A stretch of DNA of 61,553 nucleotides, filler included, from Hausera hauseri (taxonomy: Eukaryota): assembly GCA_046269625.1 (NCBI GenBank). It is 9 parts of 9 records of this genome, joined end to end, with 100 filler letters (N's around TTAATTAATTAA, not from the genome) between each part and the next. Parts side by side here need not be neighbours in the genome. Positions count along the whole stretch, not along the records: positions 27,051 to 32,270 come from JBJURY010304611.1; 8 more parts are not named here. One strand, given 5' to 3'. A program made the translations under genes and the position numbers. Positions 17,675 through 47,983 of the stretch are shown here, one piece after another. Position 1 is the first letter of the stretch, and each line of letters starts with the position of its first letter. Below the pieces are notes generated by a model. It was not told the DNA's origin. It saw only the letters and a list, made by a program, of their open reading frames with translations, and made no database searches.

Positions 17675-20290
17675 ATATGGGTGTGCAAAGAGGAAGTCTA
17701 AAAGGTTTAAACCGACATGTCGCTGAAAAGTCTGCGTAGCATTCCGGAGATTGAAAGGCATGTACAAGTACTCATAAAGATCGAAAGGTGTGGTAGCAGC
17801 AGTTTCTCGATGTCTTCCGGTGCGACAGGAATTTGGTTGTAAGCTTTGGCTAAATCAATTGTTGAATAAATTGAAGTTGTATTAAGTCGATGTAATATGT
17901 CTTTGATTAATGGTAGTGGATATGCATACATTATGGTTAAAGTATTAATCTGGCGGTAATTGCCGCATGGTCGGAAAGAGCCATCTTTTTTGGGACAACG
18001 TGGACAGGCGAAGACAATGGGGATTTAGACAATCTATCTACGGACAATCGATCTACGGACAATATTTGATTAATCAAGTTCAAAAAATTACGCCTCTACT
18101 GCCTGCCTTCAACGCGTTGACAATGGACGGACCTTTTGTCGAATTGGTCTTTGGTGTCGTATAATTATATTATGGTAAATGCCGTTTACAGGGATGTAAT
18201 ATCGATCTTTCTGAAGTATGCGAGGACAAGAAGTATTGATGAATTATTGTAAACTTATGGGTAGTTTCTGGAATATAGCAAGTGACGATAAACCGATGTT
18301 GCTAGCATTACTTTGTGAATGTTCGTTGATTGTTGGTAGGAAACAGAGTGGAATTTGATGTAGAATGGTCGTGTCCAAGACCTTGTTAGGATAAGTGGTG
18401 TTGTTTAGTGGTTTTACTGAAGATGCAAGATCGCGAGTGCCGACATTGAGCTGTGACTGACTATCGACATTGTCCTTTGAAAGCTTACGAGGTAAGACGT
18501 GATATTTAAGAAAATTAGGATGAGGTATTGACTGTTTTAAGATTGACTGTCTACTTACCGTTGGCTGTGCTGTCGTCGGGGTGCTATCTATTCCTATAAT
18601 ATATTTTTAGGTGTATTTAATTTTAAGCATCGTTGGTTACAGTCGACTAGCAAGTTATAGTGTAACAGGAAATCGGAACCAAGTGTAGCCGTCTGAACGT
18701 TAGCGACTGTAAACGTACAATGAAATGATGAGGAAAATTTGGGAGAGTGAAAGATGATTTGCGAGTTCCAGCAATATGAAGGGGTTGACCGCATGCGGTA
18801 TATAACGGTTTTGTTTTAAGTGAAGAATGCTGAACTGGAAAAGAAAGTGGTGGTAATGAGGTAGCTGCACCTGTGTCTATGAGAAAGTCTATGAATTGAA
18901 TATTAGGAGTAGCGATAGCAGTTTTTAGTGTAAAGACTGCAAAAGAAGTGTGTCGGGAAGAATAATTGGGTTAGTTGCCTTTTCCAGATTCTTCCCTAAA
19001 TACTGGCGGAAAAATCATTTTTTGGATTGGAGAGTTAGGGTATTGTTAGAGAAATTGAAACGTCTATCAGTCGTGTAGTTATGGTTAGTTTTATAGTTAC
19101 AGCCTGAAATAAAATTGCTAGCTTTAAATCCAAATTTTGCATGATAGATGCAAGTAATGTTATCTGAGTGGAGATGCGAGGAATAATATCTACACCCTAA
19201 ACAGCACTTATTTGCTTTGTTATTAAATTTGCTATGATAATAACATATAAATGACTGCGTTGGTGACGGTAATCGATTTCTTGAGATAAAACGCGTTCGA
19301 TGAGAGGAGGAAGCATTCCGTCGATGTGATGAAAGGTCATTCAGCTTATCATTGACGTTATCGATTGTACTTTGTAGTGCAGGATTTTCGGTACGTAATT
19401 GATTCAATTGGTGTTCGATAGATGTATGTCGTTGACTGTTGTCGGTCGCAATTGCGGCTGATATGATGGGTTGTGATTGTATTTGTAAAACTTCGTGTGC
19501 TTTATTGGCCAATTCATTTAGTTTATCGAAAGTTGTAGAATCCTCAACAACAGTAAGTAAAGCCCTCATATGAATGGGTAAAGCGTTAAGAAAATATCGG
19601 CAGAGTAGATCCGAATGGTGTTCTTGGTGATTCCCAGGGTACGTAAATAAACCAACGAGGTGCGTAAAAAATCACTAAGTTTTTTGTCCTTATTGCGTTT
19701 TCATTAAAAAATCTTTGTACTATCGAGTCAATTGGTGGTTCCGTTAGCTTTAATACAGCATTGAACAATTGTGTATAAGGGTCAGAATGTTGAAAGATGT
19801 CCAGTAAGTTATGGATTGAGGTCCTTATGGAATTTGGTAGAAGGTAGAGTAGATTATGGGCTTTTGTTAACGAGTCTGCAATGCCGTTGGATTGTAGCCA
19901 AAGTTGATGAAAGTGGAGCCCAGTCTTACTAGAATTTTCATTGTCTGTAAAGTATTCAGAGAAATGTGATGGTGTAATTGTAGGAGTTTTGTGAGAAAAC
20001 TAATATCGATTGGAGGAGTTAAATGGTTTGATTTTGGATAGTAGATAATGGATTTGGGTTTTGTAGTCACCTTATCTGTGATGTCACTGGTTGGTGAAGA
20101 AATCATACCGCCGCAAATTCTAGGGTGGATGTAAATACAGAGGTAGTATTGTGAGGACATGATGTGTAGGAGGTCAGTTAAAATGAAACCATTGTGAGTC
20201 AAATAGAAGTCATTGAAGGCGTTGGCTTTATGAATCAGGTCATATAATTGTAATGTGTCAATACGTTGTGATGTGCGGTATGTATTAATT
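17675..20290 (-). mobile_element. Degenerate CsRN1-like Gypsy element (gag-PR-RT N-terminus)
   Basis: Gag with CYYH...KC...C motifs, FLIDTGA protease, YPLPLIKDIL...IDLAKAYNQIPV RT; related to 40932-46430. Confidence 0.85.
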
Positions 20291-20295
20291 TTTTA

Positions 20296-22200
20296 TTAAC
20301 AAAAAGGTGGATGGGAAATGACGCTGGTAAACAACAAGCGGGGTATTGTGGTATCTCTACATATTTTATCGGGTGGATTCAGAGTGAGTGATAACTTTGT
20401 GCCTTTGAATGGAACAACGGTCGATTTCTTTTCAACAAAAGTATTCACCACTGTACAGTGACTCGAGTAATACATTCCAGGATTCCGTACATGGTTTGTA
20501 AATCGGTGGGAAATATACACCTATGAAATTAAATACTTCAATCTCATCAATTAATGACGGATGTTCACGAGGAAATACGGCACACTCATGAGACTCTTTA
20601 ATACTGTGTTTAAACTATATTATGGAACTGATTGGAATAGCATTCTAATAGTCAATATCAACAGCACATAATATTTGTGGTCGTGTTTCAGTAACATATA
20701 GGTGTGTCAATGCCTACAAATGGTATTTGTTTCCAGAATAGGTTTGAGGGAGTCTTGGGAAAAAACGTAAAAGAAATGCACAGGATTTTGGAGAATTACA
20801 CAAAGTTAATTTTCCGCCGCCTATGAATAAAAGCCCAATGAACATAAAATACGTCATATAGACACCGTAATGAAGCGTATCTTTAGCTCGAATTATTGAT
20901 CGAAGGCTTCAAGACATACATAACCGCGTTAAATTACCAGTGTCGGATGCAATCATGAACGCTGATAAATGTAGGGTGGATAAAGTCCAATCATAAAAGT
21001 ATTGTCCAATATTCTCCAATAATTCAAAATCGTTTTTGATGGATAATAATTTCTTAATGTGCGAAGGAATAGTAGTAAGACCATCCTGATTATCCGTGCC
21101 AGCATATCGCATGGCCATTACAAAACTTGACCCCACTAGCAACGGAAGATAACTCTCATTGGCCGTCAGAATATAATTTCTGTAAGATTTCCTGTAAGAT
21201 TTGACTAATTGTCGTTGACTGGATATATCGCACGTAAATACAGTGTAGCTGTCATGGAGGTCATAGCAATATTCAACAACGGATGATGTCGAGGACAATC
21301 GATCAAAGCATTTATGATTTTTTGGCAAAACTCGGATTTTGTGAATTGCATAAGCAACTAATATTTATTTTATTGGCAATGCGAATATTGCTGACATCTG
21401 GATCGAATATGCATTTAAAGTCTTGCTTATTTGCTTGTATTGTAAACTGTTTTGTAAATGAAATCGATTCCACTGTACACGAATATGTATAATAGCCAGA
21501 ATAAGTCCCTGTCGGTAAAATGATGATATCACCATAAGTAATTGTACTGAAAGGTCCTCTGATTTGTTTGCCATTACTTTTAATACGTGTTGCATTTTTG
21601 TAATCCCAAAATGAAGTAGAAATACTAACTTCCAAATATGTTAAATATAATGGTAATTTAGGTTCATATGTAAAATTAATATTTCTATCAAATGAATAGC
21701 ATTTGGAGATATTGAATATATCAAAGAGCGAATAATGTAGACAACCATGAAAGTCGCGAAGATGGTATTTAGCGATAAATGAAATTTTCTTGCCTCTATT
21801 TACAAAGTCAATTCCTTGCTTCAAAAATCGTGGTACGAATACGACGTCACAAATGTCGAATGAAAAGTAGCATTGATGATGCATGTTGGTATTTCTGTGC
21901 GATTTATAACTCCAGGCATCGGGGTGATGCAGACATTTGGCATTTTATATTTCATAAGTTCACAATCAGTTCGTTTAGTCTCATGTGATGTCAGGCATGC
22001 AAAACAAAAACAACGATTGTGAAATAAGTTTAAATTCCATAGCTGGATTTTGTCGACACTCGGTTTGCTGAATGATCGTGTTCCAGTAACAGTAAATTCA
22101 TTTATGAAATTCTGATTGCTTGGGTTTGAAACATTACATGTAATTAATTCTGTTAAGAATGCTGTTTCTGTTGATGGATAGATTGTAACATTTTGCACGG
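20296..22200 (-). pseudogene. Frameshifted Cys-rich extracellular/Ig-like membrane protein gene
   Basis: Overlapping ORFs in shifting frames; NVTIYP...ITCNV and SGYYTYSCTV resemble Ig strands; hydrophobic stretch near 20800-20870. Confidence 0.3.
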
Positions 22201-22287
22201 TTTCTGAATAAGAATGCGATTATTTGAAAATGCAAATTCAATCTATTATTTATGGATTTGTTTGTCTAATTAGTAAGGAAACATATT

Positions 22288-22367
22288 TTAATCCCTTCGC
22301 TGCCACTGGCGCCTACATGCGCTTATCAACATATTTTGTTATCAATATTCAGCAGCCAAAGGGTTAA
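22288..22367. mobile_element. Miniature piggyBac-like MITE relic
   Basis: TTAA at both ends with imperfect TIRs TCCCTTCGCTGC / GCAGCCAAAGGG. Confidence 0.45.
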
Positions 22368-22726
22368 TATAAATCAGTATAATAATATTATCATATCGAT
22401 TTCCATGAAATATAACAATGCAGTTGCATTTCACAAGAATTTTAATAAAATTTTCATTTGTTCTTTGAAATAATATTTAACTAAGGTTTGATTTCTAGTC
22501 CGTCGTTCATAAGTAGATAGAATGGTAGGGTCGAAGACAGGCCGACCCTTTCTAATTTTCTATTAAAAGCAATTGTTAGGAAATCAAAAATTCAATAAAA
22601 TCAATAATTTAATTAATAAGTTTAGTTACAGATCACTTATGAATCACTTGTGCATATCTAATCAATTGTGCTGTTATTATTCATTTTTATCAAGTTGGTC
22701 GAATGTAATGTAAGCTAAATTACTTG

Positions 22727-22869
22727 TGTTAGTAGTTGAAGGTGGGCCCTATCCGTCACCCAACTATAACAATAAGATTTTCTTTTTTATTCCTTTTAAT
22801 TTAAGCAGATAAGTCCTAACGTTCTCGTTAGGAGTTTGCACTTGATTTTAGAATGTGTGTACTGAATGC
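22727..22869 (-). repeat. U5 end of a family-B LTR (3' or solo LTR), truncated by the contig end
   Basis: Homologous to 28104-28245; no adjacent PBS. Confidence 0.8.
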
Positions 22870-22986
22870 NNNNNNNNNNNNNNNNNNNNNNNNNNNNNNN
22901 NNNNNNNNNNNNNTTAATTAATTAANNNNNNNNNNNNNNNNNNNNNNNNNNNNNNNNNNNNNNNNNNNNGTTTCGATGTAGGTAAT

Positions 22987-23657
22987 TAGCGTGTCTACAG
23001 TCAACGAAATGGGAAAATGTAGGATCGAAAAGTGACAGGAAATTATTTAGATTCACTCTTGTTACAACAAATGACGTTGACGGATGCACCGAAGTGGAAA
23101 GATCGCTGATCACCCATCAATCCTTACTCTATTGGAGAGAAATGAAGTTCGAGACTTATGGAATATATGATGATGAATGGAAACTTAATGATGAAGGTGA
23201 TATTAAAAATATTGTTGAATTTCTTTATATTTCTGTTTTCGGACACGCTGATATGGGTTGCTGTGTGGGGAAGATTGCCTACGGGATTGGATGGGGTGAA
23301 GTGGATGGGTTGGAAAATAAAATAAAGGGGGGTTGTTTTATTCGGAATATGAAGGGTGGCCATTGGATTGGGTTCTTTTCAAAAAAGGGAAGTTTAACAA
23401 GAAAAGGGAAATTAGTTGTAATCGGGGAAACCTTAAAGGCGATCCCCAAAGTAACACAATGGGCCTGGCAAATTAAGTTATATGTAAGATCAATCGTGAT
23501 AACAACGGAAGGAGAGCTATTCGACAGGGAGACACCCTATGGATCAGGTCTCAGGGTATTCGTAACTGGTTGGAAGGGGAATGTAAGTTTTGGTGTAAGA
23601 AGTGAACAGATAGGTATAATATTCCAATTCAAGGGTGTTTCATATAAAGATAAATGA
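22987..23657 (+). CDS. Gly/beta-rich ORF, possibly jacalin-like lectin fold
   Basis: ~220 open codons; GETL...W...VRSIVITTEGELF...TPYG...FGVRS..IGIIF weakly resembles beta-prism I lectins. Confidence 0.25.
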
Positions 23658-23684
23658 AATTTGTTTCATTATATCGATAAGGAA

Positions 23685-26600
23685 TCTCCACCCTCTACCA
23701 TTTATCAACGATATCCTTCACAGACTCCATGGTTCGACCATCTTTTCCTGCACTGATTTACACAAAGCATACCACCAAATCACGGTGGCCCCAGCAGACA
23801 TTCTGGAAACGGCTGTCATTACATCTTTCAGCCTTATCGAATACCTTTTTATGCCTTTTGGACTCCGTAGCGCTTCCCAGATCTTTCAAAAGCATATCGA
23901 TACAGTCGTATCAGGCTTAGACTTCGCCTATCCGTATATTGATGATATCCTAATTACATCATCTTCCTCCAAACTACACTGAACACTTACGCTTAATCTT
24001 CCAGCGCTTACACCAAAACAATTTGCAAATTAACTTCTTTAAATGCTCTTTTTTCAACATAAGGTCAACTTCCTACGATACGTTATTAGCTCCTCCGGAC
24101 ATTCACCCCAGCCAGACCGCATCACGCAGCTCAAAAACATAGCTACCAAGTACATCAACAGAGATGCGTTCTTTCCTCGGAACCTTGCACTTTTTTCATA
24201 AGTATGTTCCACACTGCTTCACTCTAACCACTCCATTCGCATCACTGATCTCTGGCAAGAAAAACAGCCTATTCAATGGACCGCCAAGCTAGTCAACGCT
24301 TTCGATCACCTCAAAGACAATTTAAAAACCGCAGAAATCCTGGCCTATCCAGACTCCTATATAGAACTCTTCTTAACCACGGACGCATCTACAACAGCTG
24401 CAGGTGCTATCCTCCATCAAGTCAAAAATGGATCCCATGAGCCATTAGAATTCTATCGAAAATTCACGGCACAAAAAACAAAAATATTCCACCTTTGACA
24501 GAGTTGCTTGCAATGGTCCTTGCAGTAAAACACTTTAAACATCTGCCAACTGCACGAACTTTTGCAATACAAATGGATCACAAGCCTTTGCTTCAAATTC
24601 TCACCATGAAGTCGCCTTCTCCACGTCAGGAGAAGCAGATATCGTATTTGTCAACATTTAATTTTGTAATTAAGCACCTAAACGGATTCGACAATTTAGT
24701 ATCTGACTTTTTGTCCCGATGGGTCTGCTCGATTGATTTTACTCCAATTTTTCCTCAATCCAAACTTCAACAAAACCAGCCTCCTCCTGACATTCTTAAG
24801 TCTTTTGAATCGTGAAAAACCATCGACGGTGGCCTTTGACACCAAACCTAATAATCCGAAAGTCATCCATTCTGAATCACCTCAAAAAGACGTATTCAAT
24901 GGCATTCATTCGTTGCATCATCCCGGTGCCAAAGCCACTTTTCGACTCTTACAACGCCAAGTAGTATGGCCGTCGATGCGCTCTAACATGCAGGCATTGG
25001 TTAGGCAGTGTGGCATGCCAAAAATACAAAGTTACTAAGCACCTAAAGCCAACACTATTTCATTTTCCCTGCACGTCTCGTTTCGAATTTGTTCACATTG
25101 ACCTTGTAAGCCCATTACCCTTAGACAACGGCCATCAGTTCATCCTCACAATGATGGACCGTTTCTCGCGATGGTCAGAGGCTGTCCCGCTTCGGAGCAC
25201 CAACACAGAAACAATCGCAGACGGTTTCATCCGCACTTGGATCAGCAGGTTTGAATCACCTAGCCATATCATTTCGGACCAAGGTCCACAGTTCGAATCC
25301 AACCTGTTTAAAGCTCTTGTCAATCGATTGGGAATTAACTACATTCACACGTCACCATATCATCCCCAATCGAATGGGCTTCTCGAACGCTTTCACCGAA
25401 CGATAAAAACGTCTCTCAAAATCCTTGCTGAGTCAAATCGCAGCTGGACCACTCTCCTTGCGTACGTTCTGCTTGGCTGGCAGAACACCATCTACTTCTG
25501 CAGGCTGTTCACCTGCAGAAGCGTTATTTGGCACTCCCATCAAGTCATTATTCGAGCCGACTGAGCTGGGTAACACTCCTACAGACGAAACTATACAGGC
25601 GGCACAGAGATACTTCGTTGAAATCAGCAAAGACTCATTTTTCAGATTGTTACACGCAAATAAACCATACATACCCGACGATTTATATACTGCCAAGTTT
25701 GTTTGGCTAAAAAATCAGACGCCGTGTGGTTTTCGACCTCAGTATATCGGCCCTTACAAAGTAATTCGCTTACACTCCACAACATCATCATTCTCAAAGA
25801 CGACAAAGTAACAGTTCAAATCAACAACACTAAGCCGGCCTTCTTCATCAATGATACGTCTCCCATCGAAGTCACGTCTCCACCAACATCTTTATACGAC
25901 GCGCAGCAATCCAACAATTCACCTTCCATCTCTACTCAATATCATAATCCACTTTCCCCTACTCTTTCTCCCAAAACTTCCACTTCAGTTTCTCACAATT
26001 CAGCCTCTCCCCGTCCGATTCTGCACCTTCAAGCTTCCCAACACCTCCATCTCCTGGTAACAACCTGCCTTCTTTTACAGTACTTTCTTCATCAAACACC
26101 ACTTCGACTTCACCAATCTCTTTATCTACACCTTTCATCATTCCGACCTCTTGCATACCACCCTCCAACTACTTTCCTTTGCCTTCTCCATCTTCTCGCT
26201 CTCGTTCGCCTTGTAACTTCACCGCTTTTTCTCTCCTTCCACACCTTCATCTTCGGCGCTCTATTCCTCCCTTTATCCTCACACATCGTCTTCTACCCTT
26301 TTCACTTCCACTTCGCGACTTCCGCTTTTGTTTACTTCTATCCCCATCTCTCTCTACCACTACCTCTCTTTCATCTTCCACTTCCAATCTCTCACAATTC
26401 AATTCAACATTTACTCCAACTTCTTTCTCTCTTCCTTTATCCACCACTACACCTATAATCATTCCTTCGTCTTCAACAATCTCTCTTCCTCTTTCACCTT
26501 CTCTTTATTCCGACTCGCCTTCGCACAACAACACTCAACAAAATCCGACAATTTTTCCCCAATTTCAACCTCTGCAAGCAAACACAGCATAAACACAAAA

Positions 26601-26950
26601 CACGCAGAGTCACATTCAGCAAGTATAGCAGGGAAAAATCACCAGAAGGCACCCAACGTCTTGTCCACACTAAGACCGACTGACACAGACACTTTCGTTT
26701 TGCGGTTTTTTCTTTCTGCCTCTTTTACCCTTCATAGTTTTCACTTTGCCACGGAGGGAGATGTTGTGCCCACAGCGGCCTGTGTTCTCTGGCCCATTTG
26801 GTTGGACACGGCCGGGCCTCCGTCACTGTCGCGTCAAATCCATAGTCGGGTCCGACTTCCATGCCTTAAGAATTTAATACCGCTTCAGGTGCGTACAATT
26901 GCGATGATCAAATGTGCTTAAAATCTGCTTAACAGTGCAGAGGGTTTAAG
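23685..26950 (+). mobile_element. Degenerate CsRN1-like Gypsy element: RT-RH-IN, Ser-rich 3' region, PPT and 3' LTR (from 26762)
   Basis: DLHKAYHQI, MPFGLRSA, YIDD, TDAS, HIDLV...SDQG...HPQSNGLLERFHRT; GGAGGGAGA then TGTTGTGCCC. Confidence 0.9.
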
Positions 26951-27050: not shown

Positions 27051-27820
27051 TCTCTAGCATATCGGGCTAATTCTATTTCTAAGTCTTGAGCTAATTGCAA
27101 TGTCTTATCAAAATTCTCCGGACGTGCTAGAATCAATTGCTTTACTATGTCTTTAGACCAAATACCGTTTATTAATTGCATCATCATAACGTCTAAATCG
27201 GGAGGAGTTGCTTTCTTTGCGGCTTCACGTTCTGCTTCCTTTTTAGCCTTGGCTATGTTTGCTATCCTTAACGTTCTCACGTAGCTGTTTGCCAACTTCT
27301 TTAATGCAAAAGCGAATTGGGTTATCGTTTCACCCTTTTGTTGCACTCTATTCTGGAAAGCCATTTGTTTTTGTTGTGGAGTTACGGTCAATAAAAATTT
27401 TAGATTTAAGGCTCCTACTACTGAGGACCAAGTTTTCTTTTCATCATCTGTGAGTTCACTATAGGCATCAGCGTCCAGATTTTTTAAATAAAATGACAAA
27501 CGCTTAATCATCACATTAGCTAATAGTCCAGCACCTTCTGCATGCAATTGGTATGTCCTTAGGAATTTATTAAGTCCGTCCGGGTCTTCGTCGTATGCCG
27601 GCAGATTCAGCGAATCGAACGTAAATATGTCCAGCTTCTGAGCTACTGCTTGATTTTCGACCATATTCTCAAAGTTTATTAGATTTTTCTTAACTACCTT
27701 ACGAGTTCTAATTCTCTTGTCAGGGACTTTAAATTTAATAGGCTGTTCAACAGCGTTTAGATCAATAGGTTCAGTGCTAATTAAGTTTGATTCAGATAAA
27801 GTGCGTCTAATCAACGTCAT
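27051..27820 (-). CDS. gag: Gag of a family-B element related to the contig-1 element (open to the contig end)
   Basis: Colinear and closely similar to 942-1560; lies downstream of a PBS and LTR. Confidence 0.85.
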
Positions 27821-28083
27821 ACCTTCTGTATAAACTCTATTACGTGTCTCACGAAGAATAAAATTTTCTTTACCGTTTAGAATGAGATTTAAGTTATTCT
27901 CTGACTTATTTCTATCGATATTCGATCTTGATTTAACAATATGTCGTTATAATACTGAGGGTTTTCTTTAAAATCCCAAATTTTAATTTCACAATAATCT
28001 TCAATCAATTATTTGATGTGGTAGCGCTGATCGCTAATATGTCGTTACTTTTCTCTAAAAGTCAAGTCTAGCAAGTGCAAACT

Positions 28084-28101
28084 GTCCTGCTAGGGTCGAC
28101 A
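28084..28101 (-). promoter_or_regulatory. Primer-binding site
   Basis: TGTCGACCCTAGCAGGAC, 2 nt from the LTR end; matches 569-586. Confidence 0.75.
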
Positions 28102-28103
28102 AA

Positions 28104-28704
28104 TGTTAGTAGTTAAAGGTGGGCCCTATCCAACACCCAACTATAACAATATCAAATTCGAAGTTAATAATGGTTTTAAAAGCAGATAAGTTCTAACATT
28201 CTCGTTAGAATGGTTGCACTATTTTAACTTGAGTGTACTGCTTGCAGTGATTGCATAATTTACGAATTCTCAACCTAACTTTAAAGTTTAAATCGATTTT
28301 AAAACTTTGTGTGGTGCAAATCCCTCGTAACGAGCGACGGAAAACTATGAGAGTTTACAACGAAAATTTATTAAACAACAAATAAAAATACTAATAGCAA
28401 TATTGAAGATTCACAATGCAATTCAATGTCTTTCTATTAGTCTTGGACTCTTCTCAATGCAAATGTAGATTCTGTTTATTCAAACTGACTGATTAAAAGT
28501 TGGCTAACTTACTGATAAATGACTTATATAGTAGTCGACATCCGTTTATTTACATTTCTACGAATTCATTTTAATCAATTTTGTTCATTTTCAACAGGTT
28601 CCAGTTTTATTTACAATTATTTTCTCGTTTGTTCACAAATTGTTTATAAAATTCAATCAATTATAATTAATTCCAACTTCCGTTTTCAGTAAATACACTA
28701 TTTA
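28104..28704 (-). repeat. 5' LTR (family B), interrupted by a family-A element
   Basis: Ends ...AACTACTAACA before the PBS; CTACTATATAAG TATA motif at ~28521-28536 shared with family A. Confidence 0.75.
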
Positions 28705-29363
28705 TGTTACAGTTGGGGTGGCCCTTACCGTTGCCCACTATATCAATATTTTTCAGCAGGTTAGGATTACTCATTCTCGAGGAATCTACTTGTGCCTTAA
28801 TAATTTTAGATATTTTGAGCTGTACTGCTGGTACTTCGTGCGGTTTAGATGCTTGTCTTAGTTTGTAAATTCTCGACTTAACTGTGATTTTAAGTACAAT
28901 TTTACCCTTATGGTAGTCAAATCGTCCTTAAGGGACGATAAAAAACTATCGGAAATTTGACAACCAAACAATTAAAATAACCTTTATTCTTAAACACGTC
29001 ACGAACTCAACACAGTGAATCACAAAATATAACTTTAATATTCAATAGCAGTTTCACAGTTCTGGTTTGAATTGGTCGATTCTAAGTCGACGTTTATTAT
29101 TCTGACTTGTTCTGAAAAAAGCCTGCTTATATAGTAGCAGGGTTTTCGATATAATGTTTATCTACAATTAAATCCATTTTCTTTGGATTGTATAAGATTT
29201 CTGCGTAAATTAAATTCAATTTCCTGTATTTACATACTTGCTTCCAACATTTATTTCAAAATTGTCGAACTATTTATTTAACTTTACTTTAATGAAATAA
29301 CAATTCGCATTTCTCGTTCAAATTGTCTATTATAGTTGGCTGATTACTTTCTCGACTACTACT
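28705..29363 (-). repeat. 3' LTR (family A, ~660 bp)
   Basis: Reverse complement matches 1-564 (e.g. GGTAAGG.C.ACCCCAACTGTAACA, CTGCTACTATATAAGCAG); preceded by purine tract AGGGAGGA (29365-29372). Confidence 0.8.
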
Positions 29364-31437
29364 GTCCTCCCTGAGCGGCATCCTCGAAGTAGCCCATTGC
29401 GTCAGAAGAGGTGGCGCCCAACGTCCTAGGCCGTCTTAATCGATTCATTCTTTCTGTGAGGTCTGTTGGGAAATTTCGTTGGTCTTGACTGTTTATTGGG
29501 CTTGTCTCCAGGTTATAACTATGGTAAGGTTTGATCCTAACAATTCGTGTGTAGCTCCCGTCTGAATAATACTTCAACTCTGTTGCCTCTGCGCGACATA
29601 CTGGCATGTCGTTTTTCCGTTGTCGAGTGTCCATTTTTCCAGACAATCTCGGCAGTATTTGTGGCGACAATCGTGGTTATCTAATACCACATATCCTTGC
29701 CTTAAATTTGCGTCGCACACAGGGCATTCACTATCTTCTTTGTCCCAATCATCTCTGTCTAAATCGACTTGAATAGTTAGCTCGATAGGTTCAAATACAA
29801 GTCCATCTTCATCTTGGTATAAGTATCCATGTATCACCTTCTGTTTGGGGTTAACTGAACTCTTATGCGGGTCACAATTTACTTGTATCAAGGTCCAATC
29901 CGCAATAAGGTCCTTATCCAAGTCGGGAATCTTTCCTTCCGTTTTATATTTTTGATATTGTTTCTTTAGTAATATTCATATTTGCTTGTCTACGGGCACT
30001 ATTATCTTACCAGTTCTCTTTGAACGGAAAATCGATGTAAGATAAGTACCTGGAGCAAACTTGATGAAAAACATAGCTTCTTTTATTACCTTCTTACTAT
30101 AGTGCTCGGTAGTTACCAACATTTTAGGGAAATCTTGGGCTGTACTGCAATGTACGTCTTCTTTTTTCCTTTTTCTATTAGGGCAATGATTTCCGTTATT
30201 ATGGGACTCCTAATTCCCTTTTTTAATGGTTCTATACTTTGAGAGATACTCGGCCTGTTTTGTTGGCTCTGCGCTCCTTGCTTCATCTTCCTTTTTCTTC
30301 TTGAATAAGTAGTTGTAAATAGATGATGTCTTCATGGTCCGGGGTTTTTCTTCTAACTTCGTCTTTTTAATTATTGTTTCTGGCCTAGGTTCTTCATTTT
30401 GTTCTTTTTGGGACTTTGATGTTCCTGCTAGTGTCCTGTTTCCTCCTTTAATCATCGGTAACTCCATCTCATTTTTTTGTTTTCCTTCCATAGGTTCGCG
30501 GATTGTGATCATAAGGCGATGCTTGTCTGTAGATTGGATGGTTCTAATCGGAGAGTAGGGCTTGAAGGTTTTCCGATATTTGATATCTACATGTTCGGTT
30601 TCCAAGGAATTGCGTAGATTGTATATAGGGTTTTTAGGTATCCATTCATGTTTTCACTTTAACATCTTATAAGTCTCCTGCAAATATTGGGAACGCTGGC
30701 TGGCTGTTAAAAGTCTTGGAATTCTATTTGGGTTGTTGGTCATTGTTTCAACTGTTATCTTGAAGAAGGCTTCTGGTGCGGTTAGTCGGTTTCTTCCTTG
30801 TACGATTTTCTCCATTTGCTCTTGGACTACTGGATGGGTGGCTATTTCCCTAAGTCCGGCAATATTTGCATCGGATATTCCTAATAGCTCAATTTCCATT
30901 TTTACATTGTATCCTGTTATCATACAAACATAAAGACAATAGCTTAACTCTGAACGGACCTGTAGAATATCTTTTCCATTTATCAGTTGTTCTTTCCTTA
31001 GACCAGTCACTTCCGCATGTGATTCCTGAACATGTTTCCGAGGGTTTACAATTGTTGAGTATAATTCAGTCTCATCTCTTTCTCGAATAGATACTTCCAT
31101 CGGTATTCCATATCCATCGTCTCCTCTACCGTAGTTTGTGGCCAGGATCCTTATGTTGCGGCCGTCTTGGACTAACCTATACGATTGCAGATGTTCATCC
31201 TTTTCTGCCTCTGTTGGTCTCTGTTCGAACTGTAGAACCGACAAGCCTAAGTTGCAGCTCTCTTTGTAAGTCATCTCGAACATCAGTTTAACCGGTAAGG
31301 CTGCTACTATGAATTCTAATCCATAATCGATGGCTTCTAAGCCTCGGCCACTTATTTTAAATGTGGTAAATTGGTATTGGCGCCTTTCGTTACAGTCCCA
31401 TTGCTGTCCCTTTATTCTGTAGTAAACTTCGCCGTCG
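29359..31437 (-). pseudogene. Family-A 3' accessory ORF: degenerate REX4-like exonuclease fold, Lys/Glu-rich linker, C3HC4 RING finger
   Basis: ORFs 30654-31283, 30210-30605 and 29574-29921 share one frame separated by single stops; RILATN...EVSI...IVNPRKHV...VTGLRKEQL; CPVC...CRHKYCRDC...C(fs)PVCR; ends inside the LTR. Confidence 0.7.
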
Positions 31438-32270
31438 GGACTCCTAATTCCCTTTTTTAATGGTTCTATACATTGAGAGGTACTCGGCCTGTTTTTTGGC
31501 TCTGCGCTCCTTGCCTCTCATCTTCCTTTTTCTTCTTGAATAAGTAGTTGTAAATAGATTATGTCTTCTTGGACCCGGGTTTTTCTTCTAACTTCGTCTT
31601 TTTAATTATTGTTTCTGGCCTAGGTTCCTCTTTTTGTTTTTTTTGGGACTTTGATGTTCCTGCTAGTGTCCTGTTTCCTTCTTTAATCATCGGTAACTCC
31701 ATCTCATTTTTTGTTTTCCTTTCATAGGTTCGCGGATTGTGATCATAAGGCGATGCTTGCCTGTAGATAGGATGGTTCTAATCGGAGAGTAGGGCTTGAA
31801 GGTTTTCCGATATTTGATATCTACATGTTCGGTTTCCAAGGAATTGCGTAGATTGTATATAGGGTTTTTAGGTATCCATTCATGTTTTCACTTTAACATC
31901 TTATAAGTCTCCTGCAAATATTGGGAACGCTGGCTGGCTGTTAAAAGTCTTGGAATTCTATTTGGGTTGTTGGTCATTGTTTCAACTGTTATCTTGAAGA
32001 AGGCTTCTGGTGCGGTTAGTCGGTTTCTTCCTTGTACGATTTTCTCCATTTGCTCTTGGACTACTGGATGGGTGGCTATTTCCCTAAGTCCGGCAATATT
32101 TGCATCGGATATTCCTAATAGCTCAATTTCCATTTTTACATTGTATCCTGTTATCATACAAACATAAAGACAATAGCTTAACTCTGAACGGACCTGTAGA
32201 ATATCTTTTCCATTTATCAGTTGTTCTTTCCTTAGACCAGTCACTTCCGCATGTGATTCCTGAACATGTT
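30203..32270. repeat. ~1.23-kb tandem duplication (30203-31437 and 31438 to the contig end)
   Basis: Near-identical sequence at an offset of ~1234; junction at GGGACTCC. Confidence 0.9.
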
Positions 32271-35174: not shown

Positions 35175-35235
35175 AATAGTAATAATGGTAATAAATTACT
35201 TCATGGTACAAAGAGGAAGAAGAAGAAGATTTTAT

Positions 35236-36469
35236 TTATACAATGATAGTTCCGTTTTTCGTTATTTCCACCTCGGCATCAAATAAACCGTAAATGTACA
35301 TCACGATAGATTGCTCCAATGCTTTAGCAAAATGAACCTTCAGTCGCAGGTTTCCGTGCTGAAGTAGTTGATTCTGTTCAACGTCATAATCCGGAGCCAG
35401 AGAAAAGGTAAATAATGGATAGGTGAACTTGAATAAATTCATCGATATGCCATTATTGATGCTTTTGTTTAGGAAACCCACGTTGCGCACAATAGATTGC
35501 ATATGTGTGCAAACATAATCGCCAGTCTCGAAATCCTGCTTGTATTTCTCAACGAAATCCGCATTCTGGCCAAAGTTTTATAATTAACATTGCTGTGGGT
35601 AAGCGTTTCCAAATCGGTAGTATAACTGTCCGTTTGCTGAGCAGTCGTTTGAAAAATAACAAGCACAAATTTGGGCAATTGCATGTCACCAAACAGTGCA
35701 TCTTTGTAAAACGTAGTTGTACCTTTGGGTATGGTGTAAAGCACAAGTTTTGTGCATTGTGTCCGGTATCAGGCATTTTTTATTTTCAAGCCCAATCGAT
35801 GTCCCATAAGCACAGATGGTTCTACATTTACACGATGTACGTATAATCATGCCTAGGTAATATTCAGTATGGGTTTAAGATTTGCCACGGTGATTTTCAA
35901 ACAAAAGACATTATCGCTACATTTGAGCCTAATCATGGATTTAACACCCGTCAGTAGTATTTCGGCTGATCGAATAAGTTAAAGTACAGCGGTCCACACA
36001 TTGTAAGCGCCTTTAATTCTGACACCCATGCCTGGCGGTTTGCTGCATTGGTGTTATATCCGATGGTTTTCCTCAAATAAGTCGTTTTCGTGTCTGCACT
36101 GTAATTCAGAGCCGTTTCAATGAGTGCTCTGATACTGTATAGACTGATGTTGCCTTCGATTTTGACGCTGTTTAGAGTCAGTGAAGCTTCCTAGAACAGT
36201 GTGAGGAAAAGGTAATTGGCCGGTATGACAGTGTCTGTTGCAGCGAGAACCTTTGATGTATCCTTTTTAACAATGACTCTTTCATAGAATAGCGTATCAT
36301 TCAAATCCACATATTCATTGCCCGATGCCAAAATGTTAAATTGAATATCAAAATTATCGTCCGTTGAAACCGAATCAACGGGGTAAATTTCTTCAAATGC
36401 CGCATTGTCAATAGCAACGTGTGGCGCAGCTTTGTCAAATATACACAATTCGGTTTTTGCAGATGCCAT
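35236..36469 (-). pseudogene. Major capsid protein (double jelly-roll, hexon-like)
   Basis: TELCIFD...EEIYPV...YVDLNDT; LPKFVLV; LFTFSLAPD...GNLRLKVHFAKAL; frameshifted. Confidence 0.85.
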
Positions 36470-36484
36470 TTGTCTATCAATCAA

Positions 36485-36844
36485 TCAATCAAAATTCGTA
36501 CGACGACAACGTTTGTTTATAGTTGATGAGCTCGATGATTCTTTACGACGTTTTCTCAAGGCACTACCATCGAATTGTTTTTTGACTGATTCAATGACTC
36601 CCGGTGCAGCGCTTTTTATTGCTGTTAAGGTGTATTCCTTCAGTGATGGTAAAATCGATTTACTTTCATATAGTATATCCTATGCTGTTTTTACTGCCAC
36701 GGCTCCAATACGCTTCAACACCGGAAATACTAAACGTGCCACTGCGTGCAACCATCCAGAGCCATATTGTTTACCAACGAAATATGGCAATTCACCGCCT
36801 TGCTGGAGTTTACTGTAAATAGAAACGATTTCAGAATCAATCAT
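36485..36844 (-). pseudogene. Small basic virion core/membrane-active protein
   Basis: QQGGELPYFVGKQYGSGWL...FPVLKRIG amphipathic segment and Arg-rich tail; one TAG; lies just upstream of the MCP. Confidence 0.65.
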
Positions 36845-36848
36845 GGTT

Positions 36849-37900
36849 TCAACGGAAATGAAAATTTAGACTGGTTATGGTACCGTACGGAAATTCAATA
36901 AAGTAGCCCGCGTCACATTTGATATTGATTTCAACATTGTTTATAAACGTAGTTGCCACAAGTAGACATATTGGATTATCGAGATTTGACAGCGACATTG
37001 TCGCCAGTAGTATACTTGCTGCTTTCCGGATAAATTGCATGGAGTAGCGGTACACGTATTCCACTTACCAAAATTGGTTCGGTGACGTTCACGTAAATGT
37101 ACATTTAACTTAGTTCCGTTTTCAGTTTGTGGTTAAGTATTGCAACATGTGCCATCTTCGTATTCGATGTCTCGGACCGATGCCTTTCAAAATCCAGTAC
37201 CGTGGCCAAACTTTTTCCAATGAAATGTCCACAATATCCTTAGCTTGTTCAAATTTAATGTACCCACTTGCATCTGACTCGAAAACTTTAAATATCGCCT
37301 TGTGCTTCTGATTGGAAAAGTGTTGACAGACATGTGCTACAGATGCGCAATAGACATTGTCTTCAGTCGATACGTATGATGTTGATACCCTTTTTGCTGT
37401 ATAGGTAAATTTCACAATTGTCTGGTAATATACGGAGCTTAATCTTGGACCAACTACATATTCATTTTTAATATCTTGACCTGTGTACTATGTATTTTTG
37501 AGTCCAAATTTCTGCGCCATATCAGAGTACTCGAAGATAACAGTAAATTCAAAATCTGTCATAAAATGTAAGTTTTGATCTAAAACAGAAACACCGATCT
37601 TGCCGTGTGAACCGTAATTTGCTTTGGTCTTGCAAGTGGCCGATTCTCCAACTGTCATTTTACTGTTAGTGTCAGAGGACAAGAATGTGTTTTGGTTTCA
37701 GTAACAGTCTTGGTGTACGTTATTTTTATACTACCTTTTAATGTCAACGGTACGTAGGGAAAATTAAACTCCGTCAGTGCAACCTCCCATTTTCCAGATA
37801 AATTCAAAGGATTGTTCCAATCTACAACCTATTTACTGGTTGAATTGTTCGGACGAGTCGTCGGACAACTGTTGCTCAGCAACGCCATGTAAATACTCAT
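36849..37900 (-). pseudogene. Minor capsid (penton-like) protein 1
   Basis: IYMALLSNSC...NNSTS...PLNLSGKWEVALTEF; C-terminus VEINIKCDAG...NFHFR. Confidence 0.75.
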
Positions 37901-37951
37901 ATTCACAATAATTTCAATGATCATTATACAGTATGTTTATTATTGACGACG

Positions 37952-38972
37952 TCAAAAATGTAACGTCAAATGTGTTGTTGACCCAAACAGAAATTTAAAG
38001 GGTTCCAAAAATTCATCAAGCATAAAAACGGTAATACTGTGCACAATATTGCGAGACAATAATAAGTACATGGGTCTGAGCATATTAACGCGAACGGTTT
38101 TATCCGATGTTTTGTACGTGTCAGAATCCAGTTCGATAAAAGTCAGTAGTTGTTTATGTTCTCTACCAACGAGTACGGATTCGGTTATATCCGTTAAAAT
38201 GTTGATTCTATGAAATGCTCCATAGAATTGCGGTTTGTATTTGGCAACAATAGATTGTCCAACAATGGTTTGATAGAATTGGCGTTTTAAAGAACCCAGA
38301 TTCTCAGCCAATATTTCATCAAAGGCAAAATATGTTACATTGTCATGTAGTATAATCAAAATATGACCATCCGCGTTTATTTCACATGTCTTTACAGCTA
38401 ATGTAGCCGTATTCTTGACGTATTCACACAATTCCAGTTCCGTTTCCATTAAAAAATCTTGTGTTATAATATATGACCTGATGGCTAATTCACACTTAGT
38501 CCACTTTACTATAATATCGGATTCCTCATTGGATGAAAGATCCAGTTTTTCACCAATTATAACATATCCACCTAGCCGTAGTTTGAGTGTATATCGACTG
38601 ATTGAAAACCCCATGCCTGAGCATTGTGTTGTGCATTTCGATGGGATTTCGATGCACTAGTTTCAAAAATAAACATAAACCGAGAAATGTTGTTGCGAAT
38701 AATGGCGAAGAATATATCAGTTATTGTGTCATACTGTCCGCAAGCGACTTGAAATAGGGTACGCTTTTTGTCAGGTAAAATAAATACAACTGTTCTGACG
38801 TACTCTGATTGGTGAAAATGTAAATATGAATTCGTCGTATGATTTCCCAGGCTCCCTGGCGTAAATCAACAGGTTGGTCCAAACGCATGGTAAACGGTTT
38901 AGCGGTATTGTCATTGTCGTCATATTGTGGTAATGATCTGTTACTATAAAATGCCAAGTAAATGCTGCTCAT
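37952..38972 (-). pseudogene. Minor capsid (penton-like) protein 2
   Basis: IYLAFYSNRS...FTMRLDQPVDLRQGAWE; ILTDITESVLVG...LL...PMYLLL...ITVFMLDE...HLTLHF. Confidence 0.75.
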
Positions 38973-39840
38973 TGAATCTGCGATGCAAAATCCAATTCGG
39001 TGCAGTATATCCCTGCCACTTGAAGAGATATCGTTTATTCGAATCTTTTCCACGTAAAAGTAAAATTTTCTGAATACGATATACATCAGGTTTCTCGGGC
39101 GGTATTTGCAGTTCCTGTTCGTAGAATTTACGGCGCATTTCCTCGTCGTTTTCATCCTCTAAAACGTACATTACAGGTGTTGATTGCCGAAATGCGGAAA
39201 ACCTCGTCGCTCCAGTTCTGATTGAAATTCTTAATGAGTGGCGTCGTACTCAGCTTTGAATTATGTACATAATCACGGATTTTTTATTTTGCGCGTTTAA
39301 TTGCCTTTCGTTGTGTTCCGTTTTCTTAAGGCCGCATGTTCAGACCATCTATCACGTCAACCGGGTGCATTCCGTTGATTCCACGGTATGTCGAATGATT
39401 GTATGCATGAATAATATCCGGCAGTACATCTACCAAGCGTTTTTTGCCTCGCTTCGTAAATAATTTGTTCAGGCGACCACGCAATGTTCGATTAAATCGT
39501 TCAACGAGCACAGCCTTGTTTTGGAAAAACACCGAGTAGCGGTTTACGCCGAACCGTTTCAAGACTGCTGCAACGACGGCTTTGTAAAATTCCTTACCTA
39601 AATCCGTTTGTAAATGCTTCGGCGGCTGTTGTTGCTGTGTTGCATCAGCCGTATCTGAACAGCGTCGGCAATCTCTTTACCGGATTTAGATTTCACGGCA
39701 ATTGCACGTGCAAAACGACTAAAGACATCAACACATGTCAGCACATACCGATACCCATCGTTCATGCTGGCGTACGGAATCATTTCCATCAGATCCATTT
39801 GCCATACGTTATTTACGCCTGCAGCACGGTATGCACGAGT
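38944..39840 (-). pseudogene. Polinton retroviral-like integrase with C-terminal chromodomain
   Basis: QMDL...YVLTCVDVFSRF, LQTDLGKEF, VERFNRTL, FYEQELQ, YRIQKIL...YLFKWQGY. Confidence 0.9.
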
Positions 39841-40329: not shown

Positions 40330-40931
40330 TTTTGAGGCCAAAAGAAAATTTGATGTTGAGGATAGATACTGGCGGGAATCATGAATATATTGGAAATAAG
40401 CATCAAAGAATCCAATATAGGCACCATATCATTTGTCGATCCAAATGGTCCTGACATTTTAGTATTAAAATCCGATTTTGGTGTGATTACCTCTGTGTAT
40501 GAAGTATTTGTTGATGTTTATGAATCACCAGAATTGGAATGTTCTCTTATAACTAAATTAGCCGTATTGTGATCCATTGACAGAATATTCGATGACCGAA
40601 GATTTACAATTAAGGAAATAAATTTTTTAGACGCTCCTTCAGCAAACCCTAAATTGTTGAGTCTTTCTTCATTTAAGGAAAAGAAATCTCCAATAGTAAT
40701 GTTGTGTAGATAGGAATGATATTTGTGAAGTCTGGCATGTTTTAACCAATCCAGAAAATTTCCCATATGTAATTGTGAATATTTCTGAACATCTATGGAT
40801 GTATTTGGTTGTTCATCATACGGATGATCCATGGTCTCAATGATTGCTTTAGCTTTGATATTAATTGAGGGGTTTTCCAGTATTGTGCTTCTAGATTGGC
40901 ACAACCAATTCTCTGTCCTGCGGTTTTTTGG
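40330..40931 (-). pseudogene. Smaug/SAMD4/Vts1-like RNA-binding SAM-domain gene fragment interrupted by an LTR
   Basis: DWLKHARLHKY...LNEERLNNLG...GASKKF matches the Smaug SAM signature; in-frame stop at 40518. Confidence 0.65.
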
Positions 40932-41159
40932 TGTTACATCGGTATTCTGAGTACGGAAGTGGCATTTACGTGCATTGACCTTCAACGAATCAGTTTTAGA
41001 GATGCCGTTAAGTTTTTTATGATCTTCTCGTCCCATCCGACGGATTAAATTCTTAGAGCGAAGAGTTGGACCCGACTATCGATCCGACGCGACGATAGTG
41101 GACGCCCGGCCTTGCCCAACAAAATGAGCCAAAGGGCACCGGCCGCCATGGGCACCACA
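40932..41159 (-). repeat. 3' LTR (228 bp) of a CsRN1-like Gypsy element
   Basis: TGTGGTG...TGTAACA termini; PPT GGGGGGAGGG at ~41163-41172; start resembles the LTR at 26762. Confidence 0.75.
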
Positions 41160-44100
41160 TCACCCTCCCCCCAGTGGCAAGGTTTAAACTATAAAAGAGT
41201 AAAATAGTCAGAATGGAAAAAAAATCGCCAAACGAAAAGTGTCTGTGACAGTTGATCTCATTGTGAATAAGACGTTGGGTGCCTTCTACTGATTTTTCCC
41301 TGCTATACATGCTAAATGTTACTCTGCATGTTTTGTTTGTATGCGATGTGTTTGCTTGCAGAGTTTGAAGTTGAGGAAAAAATTGTCGGATTTTGGTGTA
41401 AGTGTTGTGTCATGCAAAGACGAGTGAGAATGAAGAGAAGGAGAAGGTAAAGAAGGAAGAGAGATTGTTGGAGACGGATGGTTGGAGGTGTTTAAGAGAG
41501 TGTTAGAAGACAATGTACTGACAAAAGGTGTAGTGGCAGATGATGGAGGAGAGACAAAAATTAAAATAGAAATTGGAATTGTGTTAGGCGAAAGAGTAGA
41601 AGAAGAAAATGAAACAGGGGTAATAGTAGAGATAGGAAGAAAGATAGTAATAGAAGTAGAAGGTGTGGAAAATTATGAAGCAGAACTAGAAGCAGAAGGA
41701 GGATGTGGAACAAGTGTAGCACCAGATATAGGAACAGCAGGAAGTGTACAAGTGAGAAAAGATGTTGATGTGTCGATTGGTGAAGTGTCGTCGACGAAGA
41801 AGTCGGGCTTTAAGTTGGTAATATGCACTGTGAGTTCTTTACCATCTTTAGAAATAATAGCGTTGTGCGAATGTAGTTGTACCAGTTTATAGGACCCCGA
41901 ATACCGCGGTTGGAAACCGCACGCAGTTTGACTTTTTAGCCATAGAAATTTTGCTGAATACAAGTCTTCGGGTAAATATGTTTTGTCATTGTGAAGTAAC
42001 CTGCAAAACGAATCTTTGTTGACCGTAACAAAGTGATTCTGCGCCATCCGTATCGTTTCATCTTTAGGAGTGTTGTCTAGGGCAGTTAGTTTGAATAGTG
42101 ATCGTACAGGATCTCCGAATAAGGCTTCAGTAGGTAAGCATCCTGTAGAAGTGGACGGAGTGTTCCGCCAGCCGAGCAGAACAAACGGAAGAAGATTCGT
42201 CCGACTAGTGTTGAACTATGCAAGGATTCTTAGTGACATTTTCAATGTCCGGTAGAATCGTTCTAAAAGGCTATTCGATTGGGGGTGATAAGGCATAGTA
42301 TGAAAGTGATGTATCCCCAATCGGTTAACAAGGGATTTGAACAGGTTGGATTCAAACTATGGACCCTGGTCCGTGATGATGAAACGAGGTCATCCAAACC
42401 TGCTAATCCATGTACGGATGAAAACATCAGCTATGGTGTCGGTATTAGTGTTCGGCAGAAGAATGGCTTCTGGCCATCACAAGGAACGGTCCATTACGGT
42501 GAGAATGAATTGATAACCGTTGTCTGGAGGACGAGGGCCGACGATGTCAATATACACGGATTCGAAACGCTATGTGCAGGGAAAATGGAAGAGTGGTGGT
42601 TTTAAATGCTTAGTTGTTTTGTTTTTTGGCAAGCCACACAGTCCTTAACCCATGCCTGCACATCGGAGTGCATTGACGGCCAAATTACTTGCCTTTGCAA
42701 GGGTGGTTAGAGAATTATTACGGAATGACCTGGTTTGGAAGTGTCTAAAGCCACGCCGTCAACAATTGTGCAAGATTTAAAAGAGTTAAGCATGTCCTGA
42801 GGTGGTTGGTTCTGTTGAAGTTGTGCTTGAATAAAGATTGATAAAAAATTAATCGAACCAACCGACCTAGATAAAAAGTAGGCAACCAAATTATTAACAC
42901 CGTTAATGTGTTTAATTTCGAAGTTAAATGTCGATAAATATGATATCTGTCGTTCTTGGCATGTGGAAGGGTGTTTCATAGCCATGATGTTAAGTAGGGA
43001 CTTGTGATCGGTTTGTGTAGTAAAATGGCGAGCGACAAGTAGGTGGGAGAATGCTTTAGAGCGAGAACGATGGCCAATGACTCTCGATCGAACGTTGAAT
43101 ATCTAGTTTCAGGAGATTTTAGCTTATGAGAGAAAAATTCTAGCGGTTGATTTTCTCCTTTGTGGATTTGGTGGAGTACAGCACCTACTGCAGTGGTTGA
43201 AGCGCTTATAGTAAGGATGAGTTTCGCATCAGGCTTGGGGAAAGCGAGAATGTCGACGGTCTTAATTCCTTCGCGTAACCTATCAAACTTATCAACCAAT
43301 TTAGGTGTCCATTGGATTGGCTGATGTTTTTTGCCGCCGTTTAAGTGTGAAAATGGTGCTGTCAATTCATAGCCATATGATACATATTTATGTACAAAGT
43401 ATAGTGTACCAAGAAAGCTGTGCATTTCGGTGGTCGTACGTGGTAACTGGATATTCTTAAGTGCTTCAACTCGGTCTCGTTGGGGAGAGTGGCCGTCTGG
43501 TTAAATAACGTGGCCCAAAATGTTGATGCGATTTTTGAAGAAATGGCATTTGTCAAAATTGACTTCGGGATTGTGGTGGTTAAGGCGTTGGAATATTGCG
43601 CGTAGGTGTTCCTCGCGTTGTTTGGCTGAAGACGAAACGATCAGAATATCATCAATGTAAGGGTGCGCAAACGGAAAATCTGAGAGAATTGAGTCAATAT
43701 GTCGCTGAAAAGTCTGTGCGGCATTTCTCAAACCGAATGGCATAAACAAGTACTCGTAGACGCTAAAAGAAGTGGTGACGGCAGTCTTTTCTATGTCTTT
43801 GGGTGCGACTGGTATTTGGTGGTATGCTTTGGTTAAATCAATGGTCGAATAAATTTCGGTTGAATTAAGGCGATTCAAGATATCCTTGATGAGTGGCAGG
43901 GGGTACGCATCCACAATTGTTACTTTGTTCAACTGTCGGTAATCACCGCATGGTCTAAAAGTTCTGTCCTTTCTTTGTACAACATGGAAAGATAATGACC
44001 AAGGAGATTTGGAACGGCGTACAATGCCGGAGCGTTGTAGTTCAAGAAATTCGGCTTCTACGGCCTGCCTTCGACGAGGTGACAGTGGTCGTACCTTTTG

Positions 44101-47463: not shown

Positions 47464-47983
47464 NNNNNNNNNNNNNNNNNNNNNNNNNNNNNNNNNNNNN
47501 NNNNNNNTTAATTAATTAANNNNNNNNNNNNNNNNNNNNNNNNNNNNNNNNNNNNNNNNNNNNTGGTCGATTTTTTCTCAAAGGAAATATGGCAAAAATT
47601 GTCAGTTCACATGACGTAGAGACAGCAGCAAATGCAGTTTTGCTACCGGAAGGAGCTGAAAGCTATCTAACATTGAAGTTGAAAGGGTACAAGAATTTTC
47701 ACGGCGTTACATCACCAATATGGAAAGTGGAAACTTTTACGCTGATTTGACTTACGTTGTTTTTGATTTTAGCTTATGATGATTAATAAATTTTATTGAT
47801 TTTGTTTTTCATATTGTTTCCCGTCACATTAAGTTAAATGCATAAATGTATATAGATAAATTAAATGGTAATAAAACAAAAGGCAAAACCAACAAATAAT
47901 ATACATTATTTATATGAAACACAGATCACAATGAATTGTCACAGTAAATTGATCTGTCTGCACCGAATTCATGCGTGCGTGTT

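Follow-up and report, generated by a model that had tools for sequence, protein, structure and literature searches.

Several long terminal repeat (LTR) retroelements are known to carry genes beyond gag and pol, as described in the portions of the published reports consulted here. The planarian Ty3/gypsy element Burro (GYPSM1) exceeds 30 kb, with an internal region of up to 25 kb, and the same report sets the bar for a 'giant' element at an internal region of 20 kb (PMC6431247). Errantiviruses with the gene order GAG–ENV–POL and an HSV/gB-type env occur in Nematoda, Bryozoa and Platyhelminthes, the nine flatworm rows of the supplement all belonging to free-living genera (PMC13524379), and the Juno and Vesta LTR elements of bdelloid rotifers carry a DEDDy-type third open reading frame (ORF3) that is shared with Athena/Terminon elements (PMC5408684). 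Here we analyse a 61,553-nt stretch of DNA from Hausera hauseri (assembly GCA_046269625.1; 'the window'), made up of nine contigs joined by N spacers, and in particular a minus-strand gene in its fifth contig (27051–32270). We conclude, with moderate confidence, that this contig holds the decayed remnant of the 3' end of a Ty3/gypsy element which is present in many copies and whose last gene encodes a dead nuclease joined to a RING finger, that the element likely belongs to the ∼15-kb family represented by contig 1 (1–10837), and that its protein is predicted to have bound RNA and ubiquitinated host proteins.

The sequence-only reading had proposed that the 3' gene is one ancestral frame broken by stops at 30654, 30210 and 29976 and by a frameshift in the RING. 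The stops were found, at 30656–30654, 30212–30210 and 29978–29976 in a single minus-strand frame. Homologs were sought among 1.84 billion protein representatives, a library poor in eukaryote genes, and the 3' gene query returned four matches. P0001, a natural intact homolog of 870 aa, is a single ORF encoded on a 16,242-bp contig; it runs from an N-domain through a DEDDh nuclease fold, a linker and a conserved domain of ∼130 aa to a C3HC4 RING. It aligned both with the main frame (31448–29604; 36% identity, E 7e-121) and with a second frame (29616–29362; E 3e-7), and we therefore take the window gene to be the remains of one ORF whose RING is frameshifted within its last cysteine pair. A word-indexed search returned 0 matches for the window nuclease part and only P0001 itself for P0001, and the ESM Atlas gave no usable match for P0001 or its N-domain.

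The window copy follows the P0001 layout throughout. The 3' part of the N-domain (31155–31436, minus strand, as are all features of this gene) is identical to P0001 residues 150–243 at 38 of 91 positions, and the domain is common to P0002, P0004 and an ORF in contig 2. Profile searches of the PDB and of Pfam, weak tests in this case, gave no match of the N-domain to an oxygenase-like barrel. It is followed by the pseudo-exonuclease, a DEDDh fold of the REX4/ISG20 group (30657–31154; 67 of 169 residues identical, with profile matches), and by a stretch after the nuclease that passes into a Lys/Glu-rich linker and holds two of the premature stops (30123–30656; 14/55 and 27/109 identical, 25%). 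The middle domain, of ∼130 aa and with one premature stop (29727–30122), shares 59 of 118 residues with P0001 609–743, and its best Pfam match reached only E 0.13; the RING finger (29596–29726) shares 32 of 44 with P0001 744–787, and the C-terminal tail (29359–29595), which reads across a purine tract and terminates at the edge of the LTR, 33 of 91 with P0001 784–868. Identity to P0001 is thus highest in the RING (73%), followed by the middle domain (50%), the N-domain and nuclease (40–42%) and the linker (25%); this domain-wise pattern points to selection on the domains, persisting after catalysis was lost.

That loss is evident in the nuclease motifs. The window protein reads A-T-N at ExoI and G-Y-N at ExoII, and lacks the H and D of ExoIII. 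Taken alone it had no Pfam match and reached only E 0.016 against the PDB; a profile built from five sequences, catalytic-intact P0004 included, reached ISG20L2 (E 1.3e-12), SDN1 (6.2e-10) and ISG20 (5.1e-6), as well as PolC and DnaQ. The profile thus supports a DnaQ-like DEDDh fold, and with it the REX4-like fold proposed earlier; its best matches are DEDDh enzymes, and not the DEDDy type with intact residues. The catalytic D-E-D-D and H are gone from the window copy, P0001 and the contig-2 paralog alike, and P0002, which ends inside ExoII, lacks the acidic residues of ExoI and ExoII; because the residues are missing across these homologs, we regard the loss of catalysis as the state of the family rather than the decay of one copy. 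P0004 (684 aa, on a 29,990-bp contig) keeps D-x-E (as DIEC), GHD and HSALED and carries the same N-domain, and from these motifs it is likely the active form. P0003 (804 aa) has four tandem DEDDh units, some of them degenerate.

The C3HC4 assignment of the RING was borne out, the window RING scoring above the Pfam cut-off for both PF13639 (27.9 bits against 27.3) and PF00097 (26 bits against 21), with its ligands split over the two frames. Active RINGs are marked by an E2-contacting hydrophobic residue before Cys2 and a linchpin Arg or Lys after the last ligand, according to the part of PMC13061254 consulted. The P0001 RING (747–791) has all eight zinc ligands, a Val before Cys2 and an Arg after ligand 8, and from these residues the RING was probably once an active E3 ubiquitin ligase.

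The contig-5 copy itself is dead, with three stops, the frameshift and a tandem duplication of 1234 bp. An upstream partial copy of the duplicated unit, comprising the second half of the nuclease and the linker, lies at 31437–32270 and runs off the contig end; it matches 30203–31036 at 97.8% over 836 columns, the first 500 nt being identical. Both copies carry the stop after the nuclease, so the duplication occurred later than that first stop. For comparison with the window we used contigs from three read runs (X1, X2 and X3; Logan), which are short, and an assembly artefact was rejected as the source of the duplication because its junction (31436→30203) is present in X1 and X2 contigs. The same junction takes away the first ∼95 residues of the N-domain, and the link to an integrase is therefore unreadable on contig 5.

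The position of the gene ties it to an LTR element. Its stop (29361–29359) lies directly after a polypurine tract (PPT; 29362–29372, minus strand, 10 of 11 purines in the sequence) and so just inside the LTR, as the sequence-only reading had it. The window ORF and P0001 share this end point over the purine tract; the last P0001 residues, G-G-E-M, would imply a purine-rich run followed by TG, like a PPT/LTR junction. The LTR, here LTR-A, is the 3' LTR of the pseudo-nuclease–RING copy (28705–29361, minus strand, ∼657 nt); since this copy lacks a second LTR, its 5' edge was set from the purine tract.

LTR-A had been assigned to the same family as the LTR at the start of contig 1 (28705–29363 and 1–564), and the alignments agree. 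Region 28703–28989 aligned to 258–566 with 72.6% identity across 314 nt (E 4e-43); restricted to the LTRs, BLASTN found 72.3% identity along 311 nt and, at the TATA box, agreement in 19 of 19 nt. The two share their terminal 14 nt, CCCCAACTGTAACA, and their global alignment score was 177, against a maximum of 14 in 100 shuffles. Among five LTR stretches of the window that were compared, they match each other only. Contig depth over the U3 of both LTRs was low in all runs and not rankable.

Contig 1 is a Ty3/gypsy copy with the order LTR–PBS–gag–X–env–pol, all on the plus strand. Its 5' LTR, truncated at the 5' side and ending at 564, matches LTR-A and is followed in the sequence by a primer-binding site (PBS)-like stretch at 569–580, the feature as a whole covering 1–580. 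Gag, with a CCHC knuckle (1936–1983), and a region X of ∼1150 codons occupy 741–5460 (PF00098, E 1.4e-6). Region X includes a weak ubiquitin-like stretch at 4831–4953 (PF00240, E 0.08; PDB polyubiquitin, E 0.03) and, at ∼5190–5220 before env, a GRPR motif which we take to be AT-hook-like. The env gene (5712–7519), which follows the CCHC knuckle and precedes the protease, encodes a decayed class III (gB/mononegavirus G-type) fusion glycoprotein, which with X placed at its stops matched PF24664 at 125 bits (E 3e-36) and at 48.5 bits (cut-off 27). The pol region (8174–10837) reads protease–reverse transcriptase (RT, with YLDD)–RNase H–integrase (PF00077 at E 0.003, below the cut-off; PF00078 at E 1e-39; PF17919/PF17917; PF17921 at E 7e-18), and the contig stops within the integrase, after its zinc finger. 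Reading frames are interrupted in this copy too. Named RT relatives among the best 120 of 2204 matches have pol of the 17.6/412/Ty3-G type, the best identities listed being 39–49%. The marks of Ty3/gypsy elements (Metaviridae), a PBS after the 5' LTR and a PPT before the 3' LTR, are thus found here on two different copies.

We consider it likely that the env half and the 3' gene half belong to one element. In favour stand the LTR match, the coverage of each half by thousands of variant contigs from the same runs, and X1 contigs in which an LTR-A-type end adjoins the family PBS, the arrangement of contig 1. The proposed map, LTR–gag–X–env–pol–[dead exonuclease–RING]–LTR, stands in so far as both halves are real; their join in one element was not seen, and the LTRs are 72% alike. 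Adding to the 10.8 kb seen ∼1 kb of integrase, ∼2.5 kb for the ORF and 0.66 kb for the LTR gives a minimum of ∼15 kb, and an estimate of 14–15 kb agrees with the earlier figure of at least ∼14 kb. The word 'giant' is an overstatement: an element of this size would be large, but would fall short of the 20-kb internal-region bar and have half the size of Burro (>30 kb; PMC6431247). The suggestion that the 3' ORF is in frame with the integrase is likewise disfavoured. Neither P0001 nor P0002 has an integrase domain, their homology begins at a shared Met, and both of these longer homologs are stand-alone ORFs, which makes a separate ORF3 more likely than an in-frame fusion.

Several results weigh against joining the halves, or against the reading as a whole. 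Neither the X1, X2 and X3 contigs nor six locus scans (two among metagenome contigs, three among viral contigs and one among genome contigs) yielded a sequence in which env occurs together with the 3' gene, and none of the scans gave a relative. None of the best 120 of 2204 RT relatives (696–2000 aa) matched env or the 3' gene by tblastn or profile, and none lies on the 16,242-, 12,445- or 29,990-bp contig. The U3 of LTR-A (28990–29340) does not align with that of contig 1 (1–257) outside the TATA context; together with the 72% identity this indicates one family but different subfamilies. P0001 is the only full-length homolog found, and two AlphaFold models were unusable (pLDDT 33.8 and 29.1). 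Gene content can also differ between families, as the RING-less module of contig 2 illustrates (see below), and joints in X1 contigs that fuse an LTR-A-type end directly to the PBS of the neighbouring element, with no LTR-B between (28098→28703), may derive from contig-1-type LTRs: their short sides are only 20–26 nt, so that for the most part they add little to the contig 1 arrangement. The co-occurrence of P0119 and P0003 on one 4990-bp contig was considered and rejected, as both cannot fit.

In contig 2, a paralogous N-domain and dead DEDDh fold lie at the 3' end of an LTR element of a different family (14957–16387, minus strand; hhalign 97.4%, E 1e-11; hmmsearch E 3.5e-20), with no RING. 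The ORF ends over a purine tract and then TG, and the LTR-like stretch that comes next is not related to LTR-A. The presence of the module in an unrelated LTR family indicates that dead-nuclease modules move between families. Within 2613 nt of contig 2 there is one acceptor-like motif, at 16387, immediately ahead of the region of homology; the pattern was absent from the 10,273 nt searched in contig 1 and from the 2907 nt searched in contig 5. The single site hints at spliced expression. The open frame extends over 871 codons in all (14957–17574, minus strand), with a beta-rich part and a hydrophobic, transmembrane-like stretch upstream of the module. Its N-terminal part scored 8 bits unfiltered, and had no match filtered, against the post-integrase tails of P0015, P0019 and P0020. 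These three and P0013 are among the closest RT relatives listed (41–45%), and their pol has, after the integrase, long tails with hydrophobic segments in place of a known env.

Three other explanations were weighed against these findings. The 3' gene might belong to a sister subfamily, sitting in LTR-sharing elements that lack env, or env copies might end in another 3' gene, so that the joined map would be a chimera. The limited LTR identity with its unalignable U3, the lack of a bridging sequence, the occurrence of the dead module in a second LTR family with no RING, and the association of the gag lineage with at least two LTR types (a second LTR, LTR-B, precedes a 60%-identical gag in contig 5) all fit this possibility. 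Yet no other window LTR compared is as near to the LTR of the env copy as LTR-A, and contig 1, env included, is covered end to end in all three runs; the 16,242-bp contig of P0001, its content unseen, could also hold the predicted element. On balance we think a chimera unlikely. At the other extreme, the gene could be a captured host fragment, passive and decaying and with no role for the element. The three stops, frameshift and duplication of the contig-5 copy are what would be expected, but P0001 is intact at 870 aa, with 41% identity and domain-wise conservation, the window ORF, P0001 and the contig-2 paralog all end at the identical position over the purine tract, and no host protein with this architecture was found in the library searched, poor in eukaryote genes as it is, where there were only the four matches. 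We consider a passive capture very improbable.

The remaining alternative accepts the element as joined and concerns the task of its last protein, which might serve the element's own RNA (export, packaging or end protection), with the RING regulating element products rather than acting on host defence. Pseudo-DEDD folds such as those of PML PXL and Exu bind RNA (PMC13659232, in the part consulted), auxiliary replication roles have been suggested for DEDD ORF3 by Rodriguez et al. (PMC5408684), and the module persists with no RING in contig 2. However, it is the RING and the middle domain that are most conserved, as would be expected of parts in constant contact with conserved machinery of the host, and the extra domains of Burro have been proposed, as its authors' hypothesis, to interfere with host ubiquitin and apoptosis systems (PMC6431247). 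A role confined to the element's own products therefore seems to us possible but doubtful.

We accordingly return to the reading in which contigs 1 and 5 represent one element whose last protein reaches host proteins. The 3' gene would probably be expressed as a separate ORF3 from a spliced subgenomic RNA. The dead nuclease would act as an RNA-binding or docking module, or bind a nuclease partner, and the RING would ubiquitinate whatever the dead nuclease reaches. By docking, the E3 may reach a factor of host RNA surveillance on element RNA and so clear it, a step that we find attractive but would not call probable. A counter-defence role for the dead nuclease–RING protein is plausible. It would be a good deal more speculative to see in this element a full analogue of a complex retrovirus, in which a 3' accessory gene, expressed by splicing, yields an RNA-guided E3, built on a disarmed ISG20/REX4-type nuclease, that sits on element RNA and destroys host silencing factors in the manner of Vif or ICP0 in vertebrate viruses, and in which a pool of such modules, with or without RING and derived from an active form (P0004), is traded between LTR families; we offer this only tentatively.

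PML carries a RING, and a comparable design exists in this host protein. The pseudo-DEDDh domain (PXL) of PML-1 binds RNA, so that a dead DEDDh fold serves nucleic-acid binding within a RING protein (PMC13659232, from the part consulted); the likeness is one of analogy only, and PML-1 is a host restriction factor with an N-terminal RING and a TREX/Exu-type fold. By analogy, PML-1 indicates that a combination of dead nuclease and RING can work. Juno and Vesta resemble the present element in having an extra DEDD-fold ORF3 in an LTR element and one module across unrelated families, but theirs is DEDDy with intact catalytic residues and no env, whereas here the fold is DEDDh, dead, and combined with an N-domain and a RING (PMC5408684).

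Burro shares with contig 1 a mononegaviral-type env between gag and protease and a long extra gag–env region, and its Ubi2/SUMO-like domain may be compared with the weak ubiquitin-like stretch of region X; it has in addition MATH, BIR, BCL2 and ankyrin domains between gag and env, for none of which was there a Pfam match in contig 1. The portion of PMC6431247 consulted names no 3' pseudo-nuclease–RING gene in Burro, and lists an 'AIR1 ... RING Zn-finger' motif among the polyprotein domains. The errantiviruses of PMC13524379 have the gene order and env class of contig 1, intact there and decayed here, and a system cited in that paper as Sacco 2022 likewise has env before pol; 'RING', 'exonuclease' and 'DEDD' have 0 occurrences in the main text of PMC13524379. 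The literature covered, with subscription journals and Repbase outside its scope, held no description of a pseudo-DEDDh–RING ORF in an LTR element. The gag–env–pol order and large size were already known.

Another element directly follows LTR-A, arranged either head to tail or as a nested insertion. LTR-B (28104–28704, minus strand), more diverged, is its 5' LTR and is followed by a PBS-like site (28090–28101), a leader and gag (27051–28101, minus strand, from gag homology); this gag shares 60% amino acid identity with that of contig 1 over 292 columns. LTR-B had no BLASTN match to LTR-A or to 1–564 when the LTRs were compared alone, and matched 22726–22864 at 77.5% over 129 nt. The latter stretch, at the end of contig 3, shows that the LTR-B type recurs, there with no PBS. 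Its position adjoining LTR-A suggests insertion beside or into related LTRs.

The window consists mostly of Ty3/gypsy and polinton-like pieces, and most of its contigs are AT-rich with no CpG depletion. Of the words, X1 contained only 0.42, and X2 and X3 contained small shares. For the two halves of the proposed element, X1 held 5,089 and 36,797 variant contigs, and the bins covered, out of 30, were 30, 28 and 14 (X1, X2 and X3) for the one and 30, 30 and 30 for the other. Summed contig depth varies along both stretches and cannot rank parts, and was not used as evidence. A compact second gypsy family is present in three copies (17675–22650, 22970–26950 and 40900–46300), each with RT–RNase H–integrase and a Ser/Thr/Pro-rich tail; no env match was found in them, and a SAM-domain-like frame (40521–41075, E 0.007) follows a compact gypsy copy. 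Decayed DNA polymerase B (PF03175) and integrase-like frames at 47900–50600, 58760–61440 and 35200–39800 are polinton-like. Two contigs open with CpG-depleted, vertebrate-like DNA (10938–∼11900 and 32371–∼33870; CpG observed/expected 0.17–0.49 in four of five bins) and then become CpG-rich; they are either chimeric contigs or host DNA beside parasite-type DNA.

Accessory counter-defence is well known in vertebrate retroviruses and barely characterised in the LTR elements of invertebrates, and transposon defence in the animal group concerned here is poorly known. In rotifers, retroelement families have been found to exchange DEDD ORFs, and the present gene extends that finding to a dead form. 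An intact natural protein that combines a dead nuclease with a RING offers a candidate for direct tests, and a factor of transposon defence could be identified through its substrate.

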